Below are positions 2 to 5,547 of a stretch of DNA of 64,000 nucleotides, in pieces. The notes below the pieces were generated by a model. It had not been told where the DNA came from and ran no database searches. It saw only the letters and a list, made by a program, of their open reading frames with translations. The position numbers were made by a program, and so were the translations under genes. Every line of letters starts with the position of its first letter. Position 1 is the first letter of the stretch. The stretch is from a virus (taxonomy: Duplodnaviria > Caudoviricetes): positions 31,183-95,182 of IMG/VR virus record IMGVR_UViG_3300044652_000032. One strand, given 5' to 3'.

Positions 2-928
2 GGTCAGTACTATCTACGTAATGGTAACCATCGCGCGCTGGCCGAGATACTCAACGGGGCGAAGAAGGTAAAGTTACACGTCTATGATATTGATACTGAA
101 TCCAAGAAGTCGCTGAAGGCGGCGGACACGACGCTGAAGGAGCGGTTCGACGACTTCCTCGCCCGCGCCGAGCAGGAGGGCTTCCTCACCGCAGACCAGA
201 TTGACGACCTACGCCAGCGCTACGAGGACGGCGACGTAACGGACGAGGATCTGCCCCTCCCGCTGGACGAGGCCATTGATGACGACCTCACGGAGCAGGA
301 CGTTGAGGACGCCAAGCGCAGACTGGGCGCAGCTATACTCCTTGCCACCTTCGCGGGTCGAGCGCTGCTCCGCGACCGATTGCAGACCAAGTTCGAAGAC
401 AGAGCAGCCGCCCGTGCCGCGCAGCCCTCGCTCGCCCAGTGGCAGCGGGACTTCAAAGACGATATTGCACGCTACACGACAGACCAAGCCGTGCTGGGCG
501 ACCGTGGCACGGTGAGCGCGGAGCGGCTGCAATCAATCAGCGACATCGTCCAGCAGCAGCAGGCCTACCTCTCGCGCTTCGCCGATCAGCGGGCCGCCCG
601 CGCCCTCACGGGCGACGAGATGACGGACGCGTACATCGCCGCGCGCAGCCAGCTCTACTCGGGGCAGGGCCGTGCGGAGTGGTTCAAGGGCGCGGAGGAC
701 GAGGAGGCCACACCCGACACCGTCGTGTACTACGAGGCCGTAGGCGATGCGTCCACGTGTGATGCCTGTCTCCACGCCGAGGCCGGGAGTCCTTACTTGC
801 CGGGCGAGGGGCCGTATCCGGGCGAGGTGTGCGACGGCCACGGCTACTGCCGCTGCGAGCGCCGTGCCGTACACGACCCCGAGCTGGCCAAGATATTGCG
901 GGGCGAACCGGACGCTCCTACCGACTAA
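2..928 (+). CDS. MuF/SPP1 gp7-like minor head protein, 5'-partial, preceded in frame by the end of a ParB/Srx-like domain
   Basis: Frame is open from base 2 (GQYYLRNGNHRALAEILNG, ParB-like motif) through a KKSL linker into ORF 380..928; C-terminal TCDAC...HGYCRC Cys pattern typical of MuF; directly upstream of the prohead protease. Confidence 0.7.
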   Translation, partial: GQYYLRNGNHRALAEILNGAKKVKLHVYDIDTESKKSLKAADTTLKERFDDFLARAEQEGFLTADQIDDLRQRYEDGDVTDEDLPLPLDEAIDDDLTEQDVEDAKRRLGAAILLATFAGRALLRDRLQTKFEDRAAARAAQPSLAQWQRDFKDDIARYTTDQAVLGDRGTVSAERLQSISDIVQQQQAYLSRFADQRAARALTGDEMTDAYIAARSQLYSGQGRAEWFKGAEDEEATPDTVVYYEAVGDASTCDACLHAEAGSPYLPGEGPYPGEVCDGHGYCRCERRAVHDPELAKILRGEPDAPTD

Positions 929-1067: not shown

Positions 1068-4000
1068 ATGACCACGATGACTACCAGTTCGGGCTACCCT
1101 CCATACCCGAAGGTGACGGGCGTGGAGACCGGCGCGGGCGATGTGGCCCGGATACCCACGGAGCAGGACAAGATGAATCGCTGCCAAGTCTGCGGCCAAA
1201 CCGAGGAAGACAATCCCGCTCACGAGGACGACTACTCCGGGCCGGGCAAGCACAAGTTCCGTCCTGCGGCGGAGGAGAAGTCCTTGGGTGACGACATGTA
1301 CGTCACCACTCCCGCCTCCGGCATGGCCATCAAGTCGCTGGGCGGCGGACGCTTCGCCGGTTACATGATCCGCCACACCTCCGCCGCCGACCCCGACCTG
1401 ACCAACGACTACTTTACCAAGAGCACCGAGCGCTACATCGAGGTCGGAGACACCATCCCCGTCCTCTACGACCACGGATTAGACCCCACGCTCAAGCGCA
1501 CACGAATCGGAAGGGCCACCGTCAAGGACATTGACGACGTCGGCGTCTGGATCGAGGGACAGTTGAAGCTGCGCGACGGCTACGAAAAGAGCGAGCGCGT
1601 GCAAAAGTACCTCGACGCTATTGACACTCAACTCATCCGTCCGGGCAAGGCCGGACTCAGTACGGGCGCGGCCAGTCACATGGTGGAGCGCAAGAAGTCG
1701 GAGCGGAAGGGCGTAAGTGAGATAACGGCGTGGGGCGTGGCCGAGGTCTCGATTACTCCAATGCCCACGGAGCCGCGTGCGGCAGCGATGAGCGTGAAGA
1801 GCCTGCGCGAGTACGCCGTCGAGCCGGAGGCCGACGCCCGCGACTTCCTCAAGGCCGTGTGGAGCGGCAAGCACAAGAACGACCTCCCGGACTCGGCCTT
1901 CGCCTTCATAGAGAGCGGTGGGTCAAAAGACTCGGAGGGCAAGACCACGCCCCGCTCGCTCCGCCACTTCCCGATACGCAATAGCGCAGGCGACCTTGAC
2001 GCTTCACACGTCAGGAACGCACTGGGGCGCATCCCGCAGAGCGACCTGAGCGACGACGACAAGCAGAAGGCGCTCGCCAAGGTGAAGGCTGCCGCGAAGG
2101 AGCTGGGCATCGGCGACGAGGAGCAAAAGAGCCTGATGCTCAAGGGCAGCCCCGACCAGCCGAGGGACGATCATGGGCGTTGGAGTTCTGGCGGCGGTGA
2201 CGAAAGTAGCGTGAAGGTAATTAATCATAGCGACGGGCTTCCTCACATGCGGCCTGAGTATTACCAGAACACAGCGGCTTCGGCAAAGACCGTTGACAGA
2301 GAATCTTGGCGAGATAAGATTAAGGAGGATCGCACTCTCGAGGTTCATAACCACCCTAATGGGGTAGAAATTCACGACAAAGGGTCAAACACTACTCGCA
2401 TTTCAACATTTACACACGAGGGTGCACACGCACTCGGCAACGCATTAAGTCAGGCGGCAAAAAGCGCGTCGGATAATCAGCGCGTCGAATCCAAGCATAC
2501 GACAAACGGATTTCAACATTATATTGAAAACTACAGTAAAGAGGATGCGGCTTCTCTCGGAGCAGCCTTGTCCAATATACGTCCGCCGCGCGAGTCGAAG
2601 AGTGTCGGCAAGATGGTGGAGGAGGGTAACTTCTACCGCTACCGCCTGCGCGACCCCTCCGACTTCGAGCAGGACTCCTTCCGCACCATCACGCTCGGCA
2701 ACGCCGGAGGCAAGGCCAAAGGCCCGAAGATACAGGCCGTCGTAGGCAAGCTGAAGGGCGAGGACGCCATGACGCTCCAGACCTACATGTTCCCCACCGA
2801 CGAGTGGGACGAGGACGACGTCCAGCGGTGGGTGGACGACCACAAGGACAAGAAGTCGCTCGCTTTCCTGGGGTGGTCCGACATCAAGGGTTCGCCTGAT
2901 CAGCCGAGAGATGATCATGGCAGGTGGACGAGCGGGGGAGGGGATGATACGGCTGGCGGTGACTCAGTGTCCGTAGGCAAATTTTCTTCACCGACTCCAG
3001 ACCACTTTGGCACACGTGAGGATAATCCCGAAAAACCCCCCGCAGGATGGTCGCGTACCGCCTCGGATAAATTGCAGCGGTATGTAATGACACCGTCTGG
3101 CGAGTATAAAGTAACCATTACCTACCATAACGGTAACTATGCCAAGGTAGACGCACAACAGTCGGGGCGCAGCATCAATGATAGGTATATTTTCAACGGA
3201 CGGCGACTTGGCGGCAACGAGATGGTAGAGTGGGACAAGTTGCCTTCGTATTTGAACAATCTTAGCCATCAATTGTCTAATTTACCTGATTTATCACGGA
3301 AGAGTATGCCCGGCTCCACGCTCGCTCTGCCGCACAAGCCCCACCAGTACATGGGCGACTCGGACGGGCGGTGCAAGGTGTGCGGCAAGGCGGAGGACGA
3401 CCCCCTGCACGAGGAGGCCGCAAAGCGGCTGAGCCGTCCGCTGAAGACTTTGTTCGAGGAAGAGCTGGCGCAGATATCGCCTTCGGTCTGGACGTTGCAG
3501 AGCGCGCGGGACAACGTGCTGTCCGACATTGCGGCGGCCAAGCTGGTGGAGGGCGTGGCGGGTACGCCTGTGGACGTGCAGGGCAAGGTCACCGAGTGCA
3601 TGACGGAGTACGCCGCGCGATTTATCCCGCTGGCCGTGGCGCAGATAAACGACTGGGTCGAGGATCAGTCGGAGCCGGGTAGCGATTCCTACAACAACGG
3701 CAGGTTCTACCTGCGTAGCATCAACATTCATTCTTTAGCCGACCTTATAAACGACGATGCGACCAAGAGCGAGGGCGTGCCTGCCCTCCGCTTGGCCGAC
3801 CACTCCGCACGGACGGTGTCCGCCGTAGAGGAGTTCGCGACCATTACGACGCGACTGACGGGAGCGGTTAAGGGCTTCCTGCAGCGCGTCTCTGACCGCA
3901 TGGAGTTCCGCCGCAACCAGCCCACGACCAAGAGCGGGCGCGTGCTCAGCAAGGAGAACAGCGACCGCCTGCGGGAGTTGCACGCTTCTCTCGGCTCCGC

Positions 4001-4187
4001 GATAGACGACGCCAAGGAGATGCACGGGCATCTGGGCGACCTGATAGAGCGGGCCAACAGCAAGTACGCCTCCGATAACGACGGTGACGAGCAGAGCAAG
4101 AAGGCTCTGGCCGACGAGTGGGAGACGAGGCTGATGGTGCTCAACGCCGAGGTCGACACCGAGCTGGCGCTGGCCGGAACACACTGA
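1068..4187 (+). CDS. HK97-type prohead maturation protease/scaffold polyprotein with accessory domains (1039 aa)
   Basis: Protease motifs FAGY, PVLYDHG, GLSTG, EVSITPMP; followed by an LPDSAFA...RHFPI...HVRNAL (DUF6582-like) domain, two QPRDDHGRW modules and a helical C-terminus; directly upstream of the major capsid gene. Confidence 0.85.
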   Translation: MTTMTTSSGYPPYPKVTGVETGAGDVARIPTEQDKMNRCQVCGQTEEDNPAHEDDYSGPGKHKFRPAAEEKSLGDDMYVTTPASGMAIKSLGGGRFAGYMIRHTSAADPDLTNDYFTKSTERYIEVGDTIPVLYDHGLDPTLKRTRIGRATVKDIDDVGVWIEGQLKLRDGYEKSERVQKYLDAIDTQLIRPGKAGLSTGAASHMVERKKSERKGVSEITAWGVAEVSITPMPTEPRAAAMSVKSLREYAVEPEADARDFLKAVWSGKHKNDLPDSAFAFIESGGSKDSEGKTTPRSLRHFPIRNSAGDLDASHVRNALGRIPQSDLSDDDKQKALAKVKAAAKELGIGDEEQKSLMLKGSPDQPRDDHGRWSSGGGDESSVKVINHSDGLPHMRPEYYQNTAASAKTVDRESWRDKIKEDRTLEVHNHPNGVEIHDKGSNTTRISTFTHEGAHALGNALSQAAKSASDNQRVESKHTTNGFQHYIENYSKEDAASLGAALSNIRPPRESKSVGKMVEEGNFYRYRLRDPSDFEQDSFRTITLGNAGGKAKGPKIQAVVGKLKGEDAMTLQTYMFPTDEWDEDDVQRWVDDHKDKKSLAFLGWSDIKGSPDQPRDDHGRWTSGGGDDTAGGDSVSVGKFSSPTPDHFGTREDNPEKPPAGWSRTASDKLQRYVMTPSGEYKVTITYHNGNYAKVDAQQSGRSINDRYIFNGRRLGGNEMVEWDKLPSYLNNLSHQLSNLPDLSRKSMPGSTLALPHKPHQYMGDSDGRCKVCGKAEDDPLHEEAAKRLSRPLKTLFEEELAQISPSVWTLQSARDNVLSDIAAAKLVEGVAGTPVDVQGKVTECMTEYAARFIPLAVAQINDWVEDQSEPGSDSYNNGRFYLRSINIHSLADLINDDATKSEGVPALRLADHSARTVSAVEEFATITTRLTGAVKGFLQRVSDRMEFRRNQPTTKSGRVLSKENSDRLRELHASLGSAIDDAKEMHGHLGDLIERANSKYASDNDGDEQSKKALADEWETRLMVLNAEVDTELALAGTH

Positions 4188-4206: not shown

Positions 4207-5547
4207 ATGGCAGAAGAACCCAAAGTTTATGAGCGCGAACGGGACGTCGAGGCGATGAATTACGACGCCATCAAGTCCTTTGTCAAGGACAAGCGCGAGG
4301 AGATGAGCAAGTTCTACAAGGAGGAGGTGCAGGGCAAGGCTCCGCACTCCAACGTCCTCAAATCGCTGCAGGTGCGCGAGGCCGAAATCAAGGCCGCCAA
4401 CGAGCGCATGACGCTGCTCCGCGAGGCCGACGAGGCCGAAAAGCGCAACCGCGACGAGTACAAGTCCACGTTCGGCACCGCACGGCTGCCCGTCCCGCAC
4501 GAGGGCGGGCGCGGCAACGGTAACGGCGCTGACGACCACGGCGACATGGCCGTTGCCAAGTCGATCGGCCAGATGTTCGTGGACAGCCGCGAGTACGAGA
4601 AGGCGGCCAGCAAGGGGCTTAAGAGCTGGGACGCGCGCTACGACGGCACGCTCATCGCCGAGCTGGACGAGGCCTCGATAAAGTCGTGGGATCCCTACGC
4701 CGTCAAGACCACGATGACGACCTCGGCGGGCTGGGCACCGTACCCCGCGCTCTCGCCGCGTCCTCCGGTCATGACGGCGCTGCAGCAGCCCGTGGTCAGC
4801 GACCTCATCCCGCAGGACGACACCACGCAGCCCGCTATCCTCTACTACGAGGAGACGGCCTTCTCCGACGCCGCAGCGCCGACCGCCGAGGGCGGCGTCA
4901 AGCCCGAGCAGCAGCTCGCCCTCACGCTCCGCACGCAGCCCATCTGCAAGATCGCCGCCACGCTCCCCATCACCGACGAGCAGCTGATGGACGTTCCGGC
5001 GGTGCGCGGTTACATCGACCAGCGGCTGACGTTGATGGTGCGTCGGGCGGAGGACTCGCAGCTGCTGACGGGCAACGGCACGTCGCCCAACTTGCAGGGC
5101 TTCCACACCAAGAGCGGCATCGGCTCGATCGCCCGCGCCTCCAACGAGGACAACGCGGACACGATTCTGCGCGCCATCACGGACGTGAACTCCATCTACG
5201 GGTTCGCGAACGCCTCGGGCATCATCCTGCACCCGCTCAACTGGCTGGCCATACGGCTCATCCGCACCACGACCGGCGACTACATCTGGGGTCACCCGGC
5301 CACGGTCGGCCCCGCCACGCTGTGGGGTCTGCCCGTGGTGCAGACGGCCATGGAGACGAGCGGCAAGGGCTTGGTCGGCGACTTCCAGATGTACTCGCAC
5401 ATCTCGCGCCGTCTGGGTCTGAAGATCGACGTCGGCTACATCAACGACGACTTCCAGCGCGACATCCAGCGCATCCGCTTGGAGGAGCGCCTCTCGCTCG
5501 AGATCTACAGGGCGCGGGCGTTCGAAGAGGTGACCAGCCTCCAGTAA
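4207..5547 (+). CDS. Major capsid protein, HK97 fold, with N-terminal delta domain
   Basis: Coiled-coil N-terminus; AEGGVKP, KIAATLPITDEQLMD, EDSQLLTGNGT, LWGLPVV, GDF motifs. Confidence 0.95.
   Translation: MAEEPKVYERERDVEAMNYDAIKSFVKDKREEMSKFYKEEVQGKAPHSNVLKSLQVREAEIKAANERMTLLREADEAEKRNRDEYKSTFGTARLPVPHEGGRGNGNGADDHGDMAVAKSIGQMFVDSREYEKAASKGLKSWDARYDGTLIAELDEASIKSWDPYAVKTTMTTSAGWAPYPALSPRPPVMTALQQPVVSDLIPQDDTTQPAILYYEETAFSDAAAPTAEGGVKPEQQLALTLRTQPICKIAATLPITDEQLMDVPAVRGYIDQRLTLMVRRAEDSQLLTGNGTSPNLQGFHTKSGIGSIARASNEDNADTILRAITDVNSIYGFANASGIILHPLNWLAIRLIRTTTGDYIWGHPATVGPATLWGLPVVQTAMETSGKGLVGDFQMYSHISRRLGLKIDVGYINDDFQRDIQRIRLEERLSLEIYRARAFEEVTSLQ

Follow-up and report, generated by a model that had tools for sequence, protein, structure and literature searches.

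Proteins that phages carry in their heads and inject into the host are known for a few model phages only. Among these are the internal proteins and Alt of phage T4, which bear a capsid-targeting sequence, and DarB of phage P1, whose N-terminus holds a signal for capsid targeting (PMC9024508). Polyvalent proteins and effectors fused to portal or MuF proteins have also been described (Iyer et al. 2017, PMC5512222), as have the MuF polymorphic toxins (Zhang et al. 2012, PMC3482391; Jamet et al. 2017, PMC5576092). Here we analyze a 64,000-nucleotide stretch (the window) of IMGVR_UViG_3300044652_000032, the 95,182-bp record of an uncultured virus, complete and bearing terminal repeats, in which P0001, the gene of a protease–cargo–scaffold polyprotein, lies at 1068..4187 on the plus strand as a single open reading frame of 1039 amino acids (aa), directly upstream of the major capsid gene. 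P0001 belongs to the polyvalent-protein and MuF-toxin theme, to which it adds the prohead protease as an anchor.

The explanation that we favor, with a probability of roughly 0.55, is that P0001 is a protease–scaffold polyprotein whose linker is a loading bay for tagged passengers released at Lys-Ser sites. In this model, a prohead protease is fused to a scaffold-like capsid-entry domain, and the linker between them would have taken up two foreign cassettes in frame, each consisting of a short helix, a Lys, a tag of ~20 aa, a Gly-rich linker, a domain of ~120-130 aa, and a closing K-S-(L/V/M); the cassettes would lie beside two accessory domains common in the protease family (DUF6582-like and YRLRD). 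The polyprotein would join prohead assembly via its C-terminal domain, its S78 domain would cut after Lys at Lys-Ser-hydrophobic (K-S-h) junctions, the same type of site as the maturation site of the capsid protein, and two ~17-kDa passengers would be freed with a tag near each new N-terminus. The folded passengers would be kept inside the capsid and would probably exit with the DNA at infection, and the tag would be a pan-bacterial signature of phage-head cargo units that travels with the cargo. The capture of cassettes into this loading bay is well supported; the retention and ejection of the passengers, and any effect that they have on the host, are steps that we infer.

Cassette capture in the protease–scaffold linker

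P0001 comprises seven modules, delimited by Pfam, homology, and indels. All lie on the plus strand, in window coordinates:

1068..1280, plus strand: N-terminal region (aa 1-71) with CxxC-x9-H motif 1, kept in the relative P0002; ends AEEK|SLG
1335..1799, plus strand: S78 (HK97-type) prohead protease domain (aa 90-244; Pfam PF04586) with candidate catalytic His136 and Ser198; ends SVK|SLR, kept in relatives
1800..2129, plus strand: DUF6582-like domain (aa 245-354), a weak match to Pfam PF20223; ends EEQK|SLM
2130..2600, plus strand: cassette 1, with tag 1 (nt 2142-2201), a Gly-rich linker, and cargo 1 (an orphan domain of ~130 aa); ends RESK|SV; marked by its G+C content at third codon positions (GC3)
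2601..2855, plus strand: 'YRLRD' domain (aa 512-596), an accessory domain of prohead proteases of ~80 aa; ends HKDKK|SL
2850..3296, plus strand: cassette 2, with tag 2 (nt 2886-2945), a linker, and cargo 2; a 447-bp in-frame insertion with K-S-L at its left edge and K-S-M at its right edge
3303..4184, plus strand: CxxC-x8-H motif 2 and C-terminal scaffold-like helical domain (aa 746-1039), with a conserved K-(S/A)-G-R-V-L-S

Contig L081, which is ~92% identical to this genome on both flanks, lacks exactly nt 2850-3296, that is 447 bp or 149 codons, in frame. Where P0001 reads HKDKK-SL[...tag 2...cargo 2...LSRK-SM]PGSTLALPHK, L081 reads HKDDRK-SL-PGSTLALPHK, and the indel starts 10 residues ahead of tag 2. 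Two phages that are ~92% identical and differ by one in-frame tag–cargo cassette identify the cassette as the unit of exchange. The inserts are also foreign in composition, as the earlier note on this DNA had remarked from their AT-richness: a two-state hidden Markov model delimits low-GC3 blocks at aa 368-505 (0.46) and aa 608-746 (0.51), compared with 0.84-0.93 in the rest of the gene, and in both cassettes the fall starts at or within the tag. The sole homolog of cargo 2 that was found, P0082, is 46% identical, is encoded by a free-standing gene on a contig of 44% GC, and ends ...SRKK at the same point as cargo 2. Because the indel and the drop in GC3 include the tag, and because P0082 ends at SRKK, the tag, the cargo, and the trailing K-S-h site appear to move together. 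The earlier note had proposed that cargo is swapped behind a fixed tag. Modular exchange stands, but a fixed resident tag does not, since the indel and the GC3 drop take in the tag and since the tags differ at many synonymous sites; the moving unit is the tag plus the cargo plus the trailing K-S-h site. P0082 itself (contig L082) has its own N-terminal domain of ~45 aa, two K-S-L sites, and a Gly-rich linker, and it has no PRD tag, as if the same cargo were here addressed by another system.

The modular, beads-on-a-string build that had been read from the sequence is borne out by relatives, in which a slot of variable size separates protease and scaffold. Its length is 70 aa in L164, 112 in P0002, 199 in P0003/P0004, 519 in P0065, and 559 in P0001; of the five full-length relatives compared, four have a slot of 70-200 aa. 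The occupants of the slot differ as follows:

L164, 441 aa: a linker of 70 aa and nothing more
P0071, 479 aa: the YRLRD domain as the middle
P0002, 582 aa: the CxxC motifs of P0001 and no further middle module
P0003 and P0004, ~600 aa: the DUF6582-like domain as the middle
P0065, 877 aa: a tag, an unknown domain, and a 2H/Acb1-like domain
P0001, 1039 aa: the DUF6582-like domain, cassette 1, the YRLRD domain, and cassette 2

Inserts are thus not invariant among homologs: the slot varies, and cassette 2 is present or absent between P0001 and its 92%-identical relative. Because its gene is flanked by the portal gene and the capsid gene, P0065 constitutes an independent second case of a protease–tag–cargo–scaffold protein. 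No tag was found within 21 kb around the protease gene of P0002. In the phage encoding P0065, the portal gene carries an intein (L165:1976-5224; Intein_splicing, with a faint LAGLIDADG match).

A slot this permissive could also hold neutral or selfish inserts that are tolerated in a flexible linker, the polyprotein being degraded and expelled like the HK97 protease and nothing being delivered. That cargo 1 is an orphan and that HK97-type proteases self-digest, as is generally known, fit this idea, which we nevertheless consider very improbable: the reading frame is unbroken over 1039 codons, the tags are constant as peptides despite many synonymous changes, cargo 2 is 46% identical to a free-standing gene of a distant genome, and the tag–cargo–KSL layout is repeated in the neighboring MuF-like gene.

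A conserved tag at the head of the cargo

The peptide KGSPDQPRDDHGRW occurs in P0001 at aa 359-372 and 607-620 (nt 2142 and 2886). Over 24 codons, tags 1 and 2 have 19 residues in common, 13 of these specified by different codons, and 62% of their bases are identical, which confirms the two near-identical but synonymously recoded copies described in the earlier note. There are exactly four copies in the genome, all in head-module genes, and among them 18-19 of 24 residues are common, with 7-13 synonymous codon differences and 62-72% of bases shared. To judge from their codons, the tags are under peptide-level selection, residues being kept and synonymous codons changed.

A profile built from 90 independent copies has the core Q-P-R-D-D-H-G-R-(W/F) followed by a Gly-rich run, and both P0001 tags match it (E 2e-15 and 2e-13). 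Positions that the search left unconstrained are conserved as well, namely K/R at -6, Y/F at -5, S/D/N at -4, D at -2, and the Gly run after W/F. The tags of the P0001 genome have K at -6 and S at -4, with Gly instead of the usual aromatic residue at -5 in three of the four, a variant shared with L008 and L015. The exact core is present in 73 IMG/VR contigs, compared with our own estimate of ~1 expected by chance, and in 74 DNA stretches of bacterial genomes (one genome per species) from the Alpha- and Gammaproteobacteria, Actinomycetota, Bacillota, Planctomycetota, Cyanobacteria, Myxococcota, and others; among 300 alphaproteobacterial species that were sampled, ~2% have it. Tag-bearing proteins include portals, MuF proteins, ADP-ribosyltransferases (ARTs), zeta toxins, and 2H enzymes. 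In head-module proteins the tag is placed at the start of the variable domain, and it sits almost always between an anchor (MuF, portal, or protease) and a variable effector or toxin domain; the domains linked to it are PBECR3, ART, Gln-amidase, SprT, 2H, zeta toxin, RNase A-type toxin, and Ntox50. Giant proteins carry 4-9 copies, one per gap between domains. The tag is conserved among phages with differing portal, capsid, and protease families (S78, XkdF-type, DUF2213, and Mu-type), which points to either a universal partner or a self-sufficient peptide.

No Pfam family covers the tag and no PDB chain contains it. Literature string searches with several spellings of the motif found no mention of it, nor did text searches of the papers on polyvalent proteins and MuF toxins (PMC5512222, PMC3482391, and PMC5576092) find a description. 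A tblastn search of cultured phage records with a 29-aa tag query gave no match, a result of little weight given the short query and low-complexity filtering. On the evidence of the proteins that bear it, the tag is a widespread signature of phage-head cargo, apparently undescribed. Its core, R-D-x-x-G-R-(W/F) (window 2160-2183 and 2904-2927), is presumably similar to Y-D-x-x-G-R-L, the core of the beta-hairpin-forming YD/RHS repeats.

What the tag does can be estimated only roughly, and the candidate roles are not mutually exclusive. That it is an address or handling peptide for capsid-internal cargo falls a little short of even odds; that it is a protease-recognition element is considerably less probable, an estimate separate from those attached to the whole explanations weighed in this text; and the remainder goes to a recombination junction or something else. 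Of the roles floated in the earlier note, neither retention, ejection, nor DNA binding drew support from the present tests, and DNA binding is not favored, the core of the tag being net neutral.

As a whole explanation, the tag itself may be the recognition element of the protease, cut after the K/R at -6 or -7 and having no role in addressing or ejection. This we regard as unlikely, although several features fit it: among 74 independent tags, 49 have K/R at one of these two positions, compared with a background of 12% per position; four free-standing tagged proteins (L013, L021, L035, and L036) start M-(F/A/S)-N-(P/A)-D-Q-P-R-D, their Met occupying precisely the -6 position at which fusions have K/R, as though the mature N-terminus lay there; and the tag always lies at domain junctions. 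However, 16 of the 74 tags (22%) have no basic residue nearby upstream, and 9 of the 74 are at the C-terminal end, so that being cut cannot be what the tag is generally for, and the tag is not simply a cleavage site or an N-terminal leader. In addition, its nine near-invariant residues go far beyond the needs of known prohead-protease sites, it is kept across the four protease families named above, and in P0001 each tag is preceded, at a distance of 4-10 residues, by separate K-S-h sites.

Two subfamilies of small proteins (L007, L037, L041, and L049; L012, L039, and L054) end in the tag, with the endings ...YNPDLRTPQPRDDHGRFTRRED and ...HRVTRRQPRDDHGRWLAV, and lack the usual upstream flank, a misfit with a leader-only model. 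One of the free-standing tagged genes with Met at -6 is placed between the terminase and portal genes. In tagged fusions, a cut after K/R would often expose Tyr or Phe at the new N-terminus. N-terminal Tyr or Phe is an N-degron in many bacteria, and if the fusions are cut after the K/R at -6, the exposed residue could limit the lifetime of the injected proteins.

A further possibility is that the tag serves mainly as a recombination junction for the exchange of cassettes between head genes, like the VENN or DPxGL boundaries of polymorphic toxins. In polymorphic portal- and MuF-toxin fusions the tag does mark the start of the variable part, and the cassette that differs between P0001 and L081 starts 10 residues before a tag. 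Yet the 62-72% of bases shared by the tags in the genome are too few for homologous recombination, the right edge of the indel is a K-S-h site with no tag, and conservation is at the level of the peptide and extends to free-standing and C-terminal tags, which together make this explanation improbable.

Lys-Ser junctions and the predicted protease

Release of the tagged passengers, as the favored model has it, would require a protease and sites for it to cut. The protease domain is recognized by PF04586 when aa 89-245 are scanned alone (24.5 bits compared with a cut-off of 21, with the match spanning aa 96-246); on the whole of P0001 the score is 20.1 bits, just below that cut-off. Matches to the PHROG head-maturation-protease families are weak, and the whole of P0001 had no match in scans of PHROGs and NCBIfam. 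An alignment of five protease homologs shows H136 and S198 to be invariant, and we take them to be the equivalents of His65 and Ser114 of HK97 gp4. Profile, His/Ser pair, and gene position place P0001 in the S78 family, and its proteolytic activity is predicted on that basis. In Pfam scans S78 was the sole peptidase seen in P0001; neither an embedded zincin-like (MPTase) peptidase nor a MuF domain was found.

K-S dipeptides are enriched in P0001 (13 observed and 6.1 expected, P=0.005), and K-S-[LVMI] more so (7 observed and 1.1 expected, P=5e-5; 20,000 shuffles). All five internal junctions set by homology or indels, after aa 244, 354, 511, 596, and 745, carry K-S-(L/V/M). Those at the junctions of the backbone (behind the protease, behind the DUF6582-like and YRLRD domains, and ahead of the scaffold) recur in L164, P0071, P0002, P0003/P0004, and P0068, and in distant relatives they read PMK-SF and ATK-SM (L164), PLK-SY and KDKK-SV (P0071), VEVK-SL (P0002), and NK-SL (P0003). 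The rule proposed in the earlier note, that K-S-h marks the module boundaries, therefore stands for five of five homology-defined junctions, but the converse fails, some K-S-h sites (K118, K174, and K210 in the protease domain) not being boundaries. K89-S90 lies at the extreme N-terminal edge of the protease domain, where the Pfam S78 match starts at residue 96.

The maturation cut of the HK97 capsid protein is at a Lys-Ser bond. In the capsid protein encoded next to P0001, VAK-SIGQM closes the N-terminal helical region, and the capsid protein of L164 has EYK-SLGQM at the matching place. The HK97 protease is known to strip an N-terminal domain of ~103-104 residues from the capsid protein (PMC9024508). 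Cleavage of P0001 at K|S by its own protease is plausible, with five comparative lines in its support, and the predicted products include fragments of 17.3 kDa (tag 1 and cargo 1) and 16.5 kDa (tag 2 and cargo 2, aa 597-745).

The cargo domains

Neither cargo 1 nor cargo 2 belongs to a family in Pfam, PHROGs, or NCBIfam. Exhaustive and word-index searches found no sequence relatives of cargo 1, and word-index searches found no shorter homologs of either domain. Nothing significant matched cargo 1, cargo 2, the YRLRD domain, or the tag profile among the sequences of the PDB, and a feature search of the ESM Atlas gave no usable match for cargo 1 and only subthreshold matches for cargo 2. The model of cargo 1 is of low confidence (predicted local distance difference test, pLDDT, 58.8), with a beta-beta-beta-alpha / beta-beta-alpha core and a weak internal repeat in the sequence; fold searches gave a Foldseek E of 0.1 at best and a top VIA Z of 5.6, to PH-like or Pur-alpha folds. 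Cargo 2, which has no Cys, is modeled with moderate confidence (pLDDT 75.9) as a beta-meander plus helix. Its matches are E2/UBC folds with Foldseek (E about 0.1), RWD, Csm1, an Rhs immunity protein, and type III secretion system chaperones with VIA (top Z 5.3), YbjN/CesT-like proteins in the Atlas (template modeling score about 0.5), and only uncharacterized proteins in BFVD. All of these fold matches are under the level at which a match means more than a common arrangement. From the models, both domains look more like small binding proteins than enzymes, and the view that they are effectors, put forward in the earlier note, is not supported by any of the searches described here, which yielded no family and only weak fold matches.

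These properties suit another explanation, in which the inserts act inside the head in structure or assembly (as extra scaffold mass, or in DNA organization or pressure control in a 95-kb capsid, for example) and are not directed at the host. The cargo domains have no catalytic motifs and weak likeness to small binding folds (RWD/YbjN/chaperone-like and PH/PUR-like), they lie in a scaffold-bearing protein, and the DUF6582-like and YRLRD domains, which are common in prohead proteases of this kind, likewise have no known effector role. However, cassette 2 is missing in the 92%-identical relative and both cassettes are missing in others, which indicates that they are dispensable for assembly; the composition of the inserts is foreign; and elsewhere the same tag heads toxins and anti-defense-type enzymes. 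We consider a structural role doubtful for these reasons.

Other modules of P0001 and the neighboring genes

The start codon of P0001 is supported by P0002, which begins with the identical MTTMTTS...PPYPKVTG. Two copies of the motif C-x2-C-G-x3-(E/D)-D-x-P-x-H-(E/D) are present, one ahead of the protease (window 1182-1250) and one ahead of the scaffold-like domain (3372-3416). The motif is kept in P0002 and P0068 and shows only three obvious metal ligands, a putative metal site. Among the labels that the earlier note gave to the modules, S78 holds, the segment scan being above the cut-off; DUF6582 is weak (PF20223, 21.6 bits, under the cut-off of 27.3); and the 'Zn motifs' are CxxC-x8/9-H strings whose metal binding is putative. 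The DUF6582-like domain is 50-60% identical to many phage head-gene fusions and is absent from P0002, and the K-S-L at its end is kept in P0003/P0004. The YRLRD domain, with the pattern FRT...GKLKGE...FP...W...W, matches no Pfam family. It draws most of the 150 matches listed in the exhaustive search, usually directly beside a protease domain, on either side, and small free-standing versions exist too.

The C-terminal domain aligns with those of P0002, P0003/P0004, P0065, P0068, P0071, and L164. It has no family match, and its homology to the C-terminal domains of these relatives, together with its position, suggests a scaffold or capsid-targeting part. A nested scaffold gene starting at the internal Met747 was rejected, the relative L081 having Leu there. 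Within the scaffold-like domain, a short dip in GC (about 0.48-0.55) is seen at window 3676-3750 (aa 871-900, ...RFYLRSINIHSLADLIN...); it is not a recent insert, because the near-identical relative P0068 has the same peptide.

The gene order of the head module is terminase, 2H-phosphoesterase/DRAT-like, 310-aa tagged protein, portal, 443-aa MuF-like tagged protein, P0001, and HK97-fold capsid, and synteny around P0001 is kept in L078, L081, L164, and L165. The immediate neighbors are:

2..928, plus strand: the 443-aa MuF-like gene, of which the window holds the 3' part (whole gene at genome 30779-32110, window -403 to 928); phrog_24776, with the MuF-typical CxxC...CRC read from the sequence
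4207..5547, plus strand: major capsid protein, HK97 fold (Pfam PF05065, E 1e-32), with an N-terminal helical region and the candidate maturation site VAK118|SIGQM

The 5' part of the MuF-like gene, outside the window, encodes the fourth tag and a low-GC3 ParB-like cargo (NGNHR, ParB/Srx-like) that ends ESKK|SL. From N- to C-terminus the protein consists of the tag (VKSYDPDEPRDERGRW), the low-GC3 NGNHR domain, ESKK-SL, and the high-GC3 MuF-like part, and it repeats the tag–cargo–KSL plan of the P0001 cassettes. Farther upstream, a 503-aa protein (genome 22213-23724; L004:7213-8721) combines a 2H phosphoesterase with a DRAT-like ADP-ribosyltransferase and has ERK-SL at aa 30 behind a low-GC3 leader, which makes it a probable further head passenger that is processed. 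The neighbors of P0001 with a tag or K-S-L thus carry 2H, DRAT-like, and ParB-like parts. The 310-aa tagged protein (genome 23724-24656; L004:8724-9653) begins KHCGHPERHVDGD...PLKP, which resembles a short stretch of P0002, KHCGNPDDHVDGDPELPLK, placed where P0001 has its inserts; this likeness hints at shuffling between head genes.

Weight and implications of the loading-bay model

Several points weigh against the proposal that P0001 is a loading bay with releasable passengers. HK97-type proteases normally self-digest and leave the capsid, and the passengers could be digested and lost in the same way. Close relatives covering the 5' half of P0001 were sought in IMG/VR and in JGI metagenomes and none was found, so that cassette 1 has no with/without comparison. 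K-S also occurs within folded domains (K118, K174, and K210) and K-S-h sites are sparse in P0065, which means that the site rule does not hold throughout the family. With 16 tags that have no nearby upstream K/R and 9 that are C-terminal, the tag is more than a plain cleavage site or leader. The label of the cargo as effectors is drawn by analogy with other tagged proteins, and cleavage, packaging, and delivery are predicted from sequence comparison.

A more far-reaching version of the model, which we put forward tentatively and against the odds, holds that the ~20-aa (K/R)-(Y/F)-S-P-D-Q-P-R-D-D-H-G-R-(W/F)-x-x-G-G-G serves universally as an address or handling signal for the capsid-internal proteins of tailed phages, across host phyla and head-gene families, with the protease–scaffold as a high-copy, K-S-releasing loader. 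If this is true, the sequence by itself could reveal which proteins a phage injects, and a tag and a K-S-h site added to proteins of choice could bring them into capsids. More generally, a conserved tag combined with a simple junction site would make cargo recognizable in any phage genome, and anti-defense factors and toxins could be among the cargo so recognized. The prohead protease–scaffold would be a third cargo anchor beside MuF and portal, probably with far more copies per capsid.

Comparison with known systems

P0001 resembles HK97 gp4 in its S78 domain with invariant His and Ser and in the location of its gene beside the capsid gene, and the capsid protein of the P0001 phage resembles that of HK97 in its N-terminal helical region and its K|S(I/L)G site. 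Duda et al. are said to have found in 2013 that the C-terminal part of the HK97 protease directs capsid entry. HK97 gp4 is about 225 aa long and has no passengers, whereas P0001 has 1039 aa, about 490 of which belong to inserted modules, and its C-terminal domain is scaffold-like. In lambda C/Nu3 and P2 gpO, protease and scaffold share one reading frame and process themselves during head assembly; we know of no foreign passenger domains or tag in either.

The cargo-loading peptides of encapsulins offer a parallel of another kind: unrelated cargo proteins bound for an HK97-fold shell carry, at one end or the other, a short conserved peptide with a flexible Gly-rich tether. The P0001 tag has no sequence similarity to these peptides. 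Nor has it any likeness in sequence to the T4-type capsid-targeting sequence, an N-terminal leader of ~10 aa that guides proteins into the prohead and is removed by the head protease at L/I-x-E sites. T4 and P1 are nevertheless close in principle: a short peptide marks proteins of the capsid interior, the head protease of T4 processes passengers, and in both phages the passengers enter the host with the DNA. The signals of T4 and P1 are lineage-specific and N-terminal, whereas the tag of the P0001 type spans phyla and head-gene families and can also be internal or C-terminal.

The closest likeness is to the polyvalent proteins, which also combine unrelated domains in one head-module polypeptide that is predicted to be packaged and injected. 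The families described for the polyvalent and MuF systems (ART, 2H, PBECR, InPase, zeta toxin, and NUDIX) are joined by the tag to MuF and portal anchors. In those systems the anchor is MuF or portal, whereas in P0001 it is the prohead protease–scaffold; polyvalent proteins are processed by an embedded zincin or papain-like peptidase, whereas processing of P0001 would be by S78 at K-S-h sites; and polyvalent proteins carry recognized effector domains, whereas the cargo domains of P0001 match no known family. A MuF polymorphic toxin consists of an N-terminal MuF domain and a C-terminal toxin of at least 100 aa, a definition that does not extend to P0001, which has no MuF domain. MuF toxins as described have their cargo at the C-terminus, whereas in the neighboring 443-aa MuF-like protein the order is reversed and the cargo is N-terminal. 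What P0001 adds to these systems is cassettes embedded in a prohead protease and, for one of them, a natural pair of genomes with and without it.

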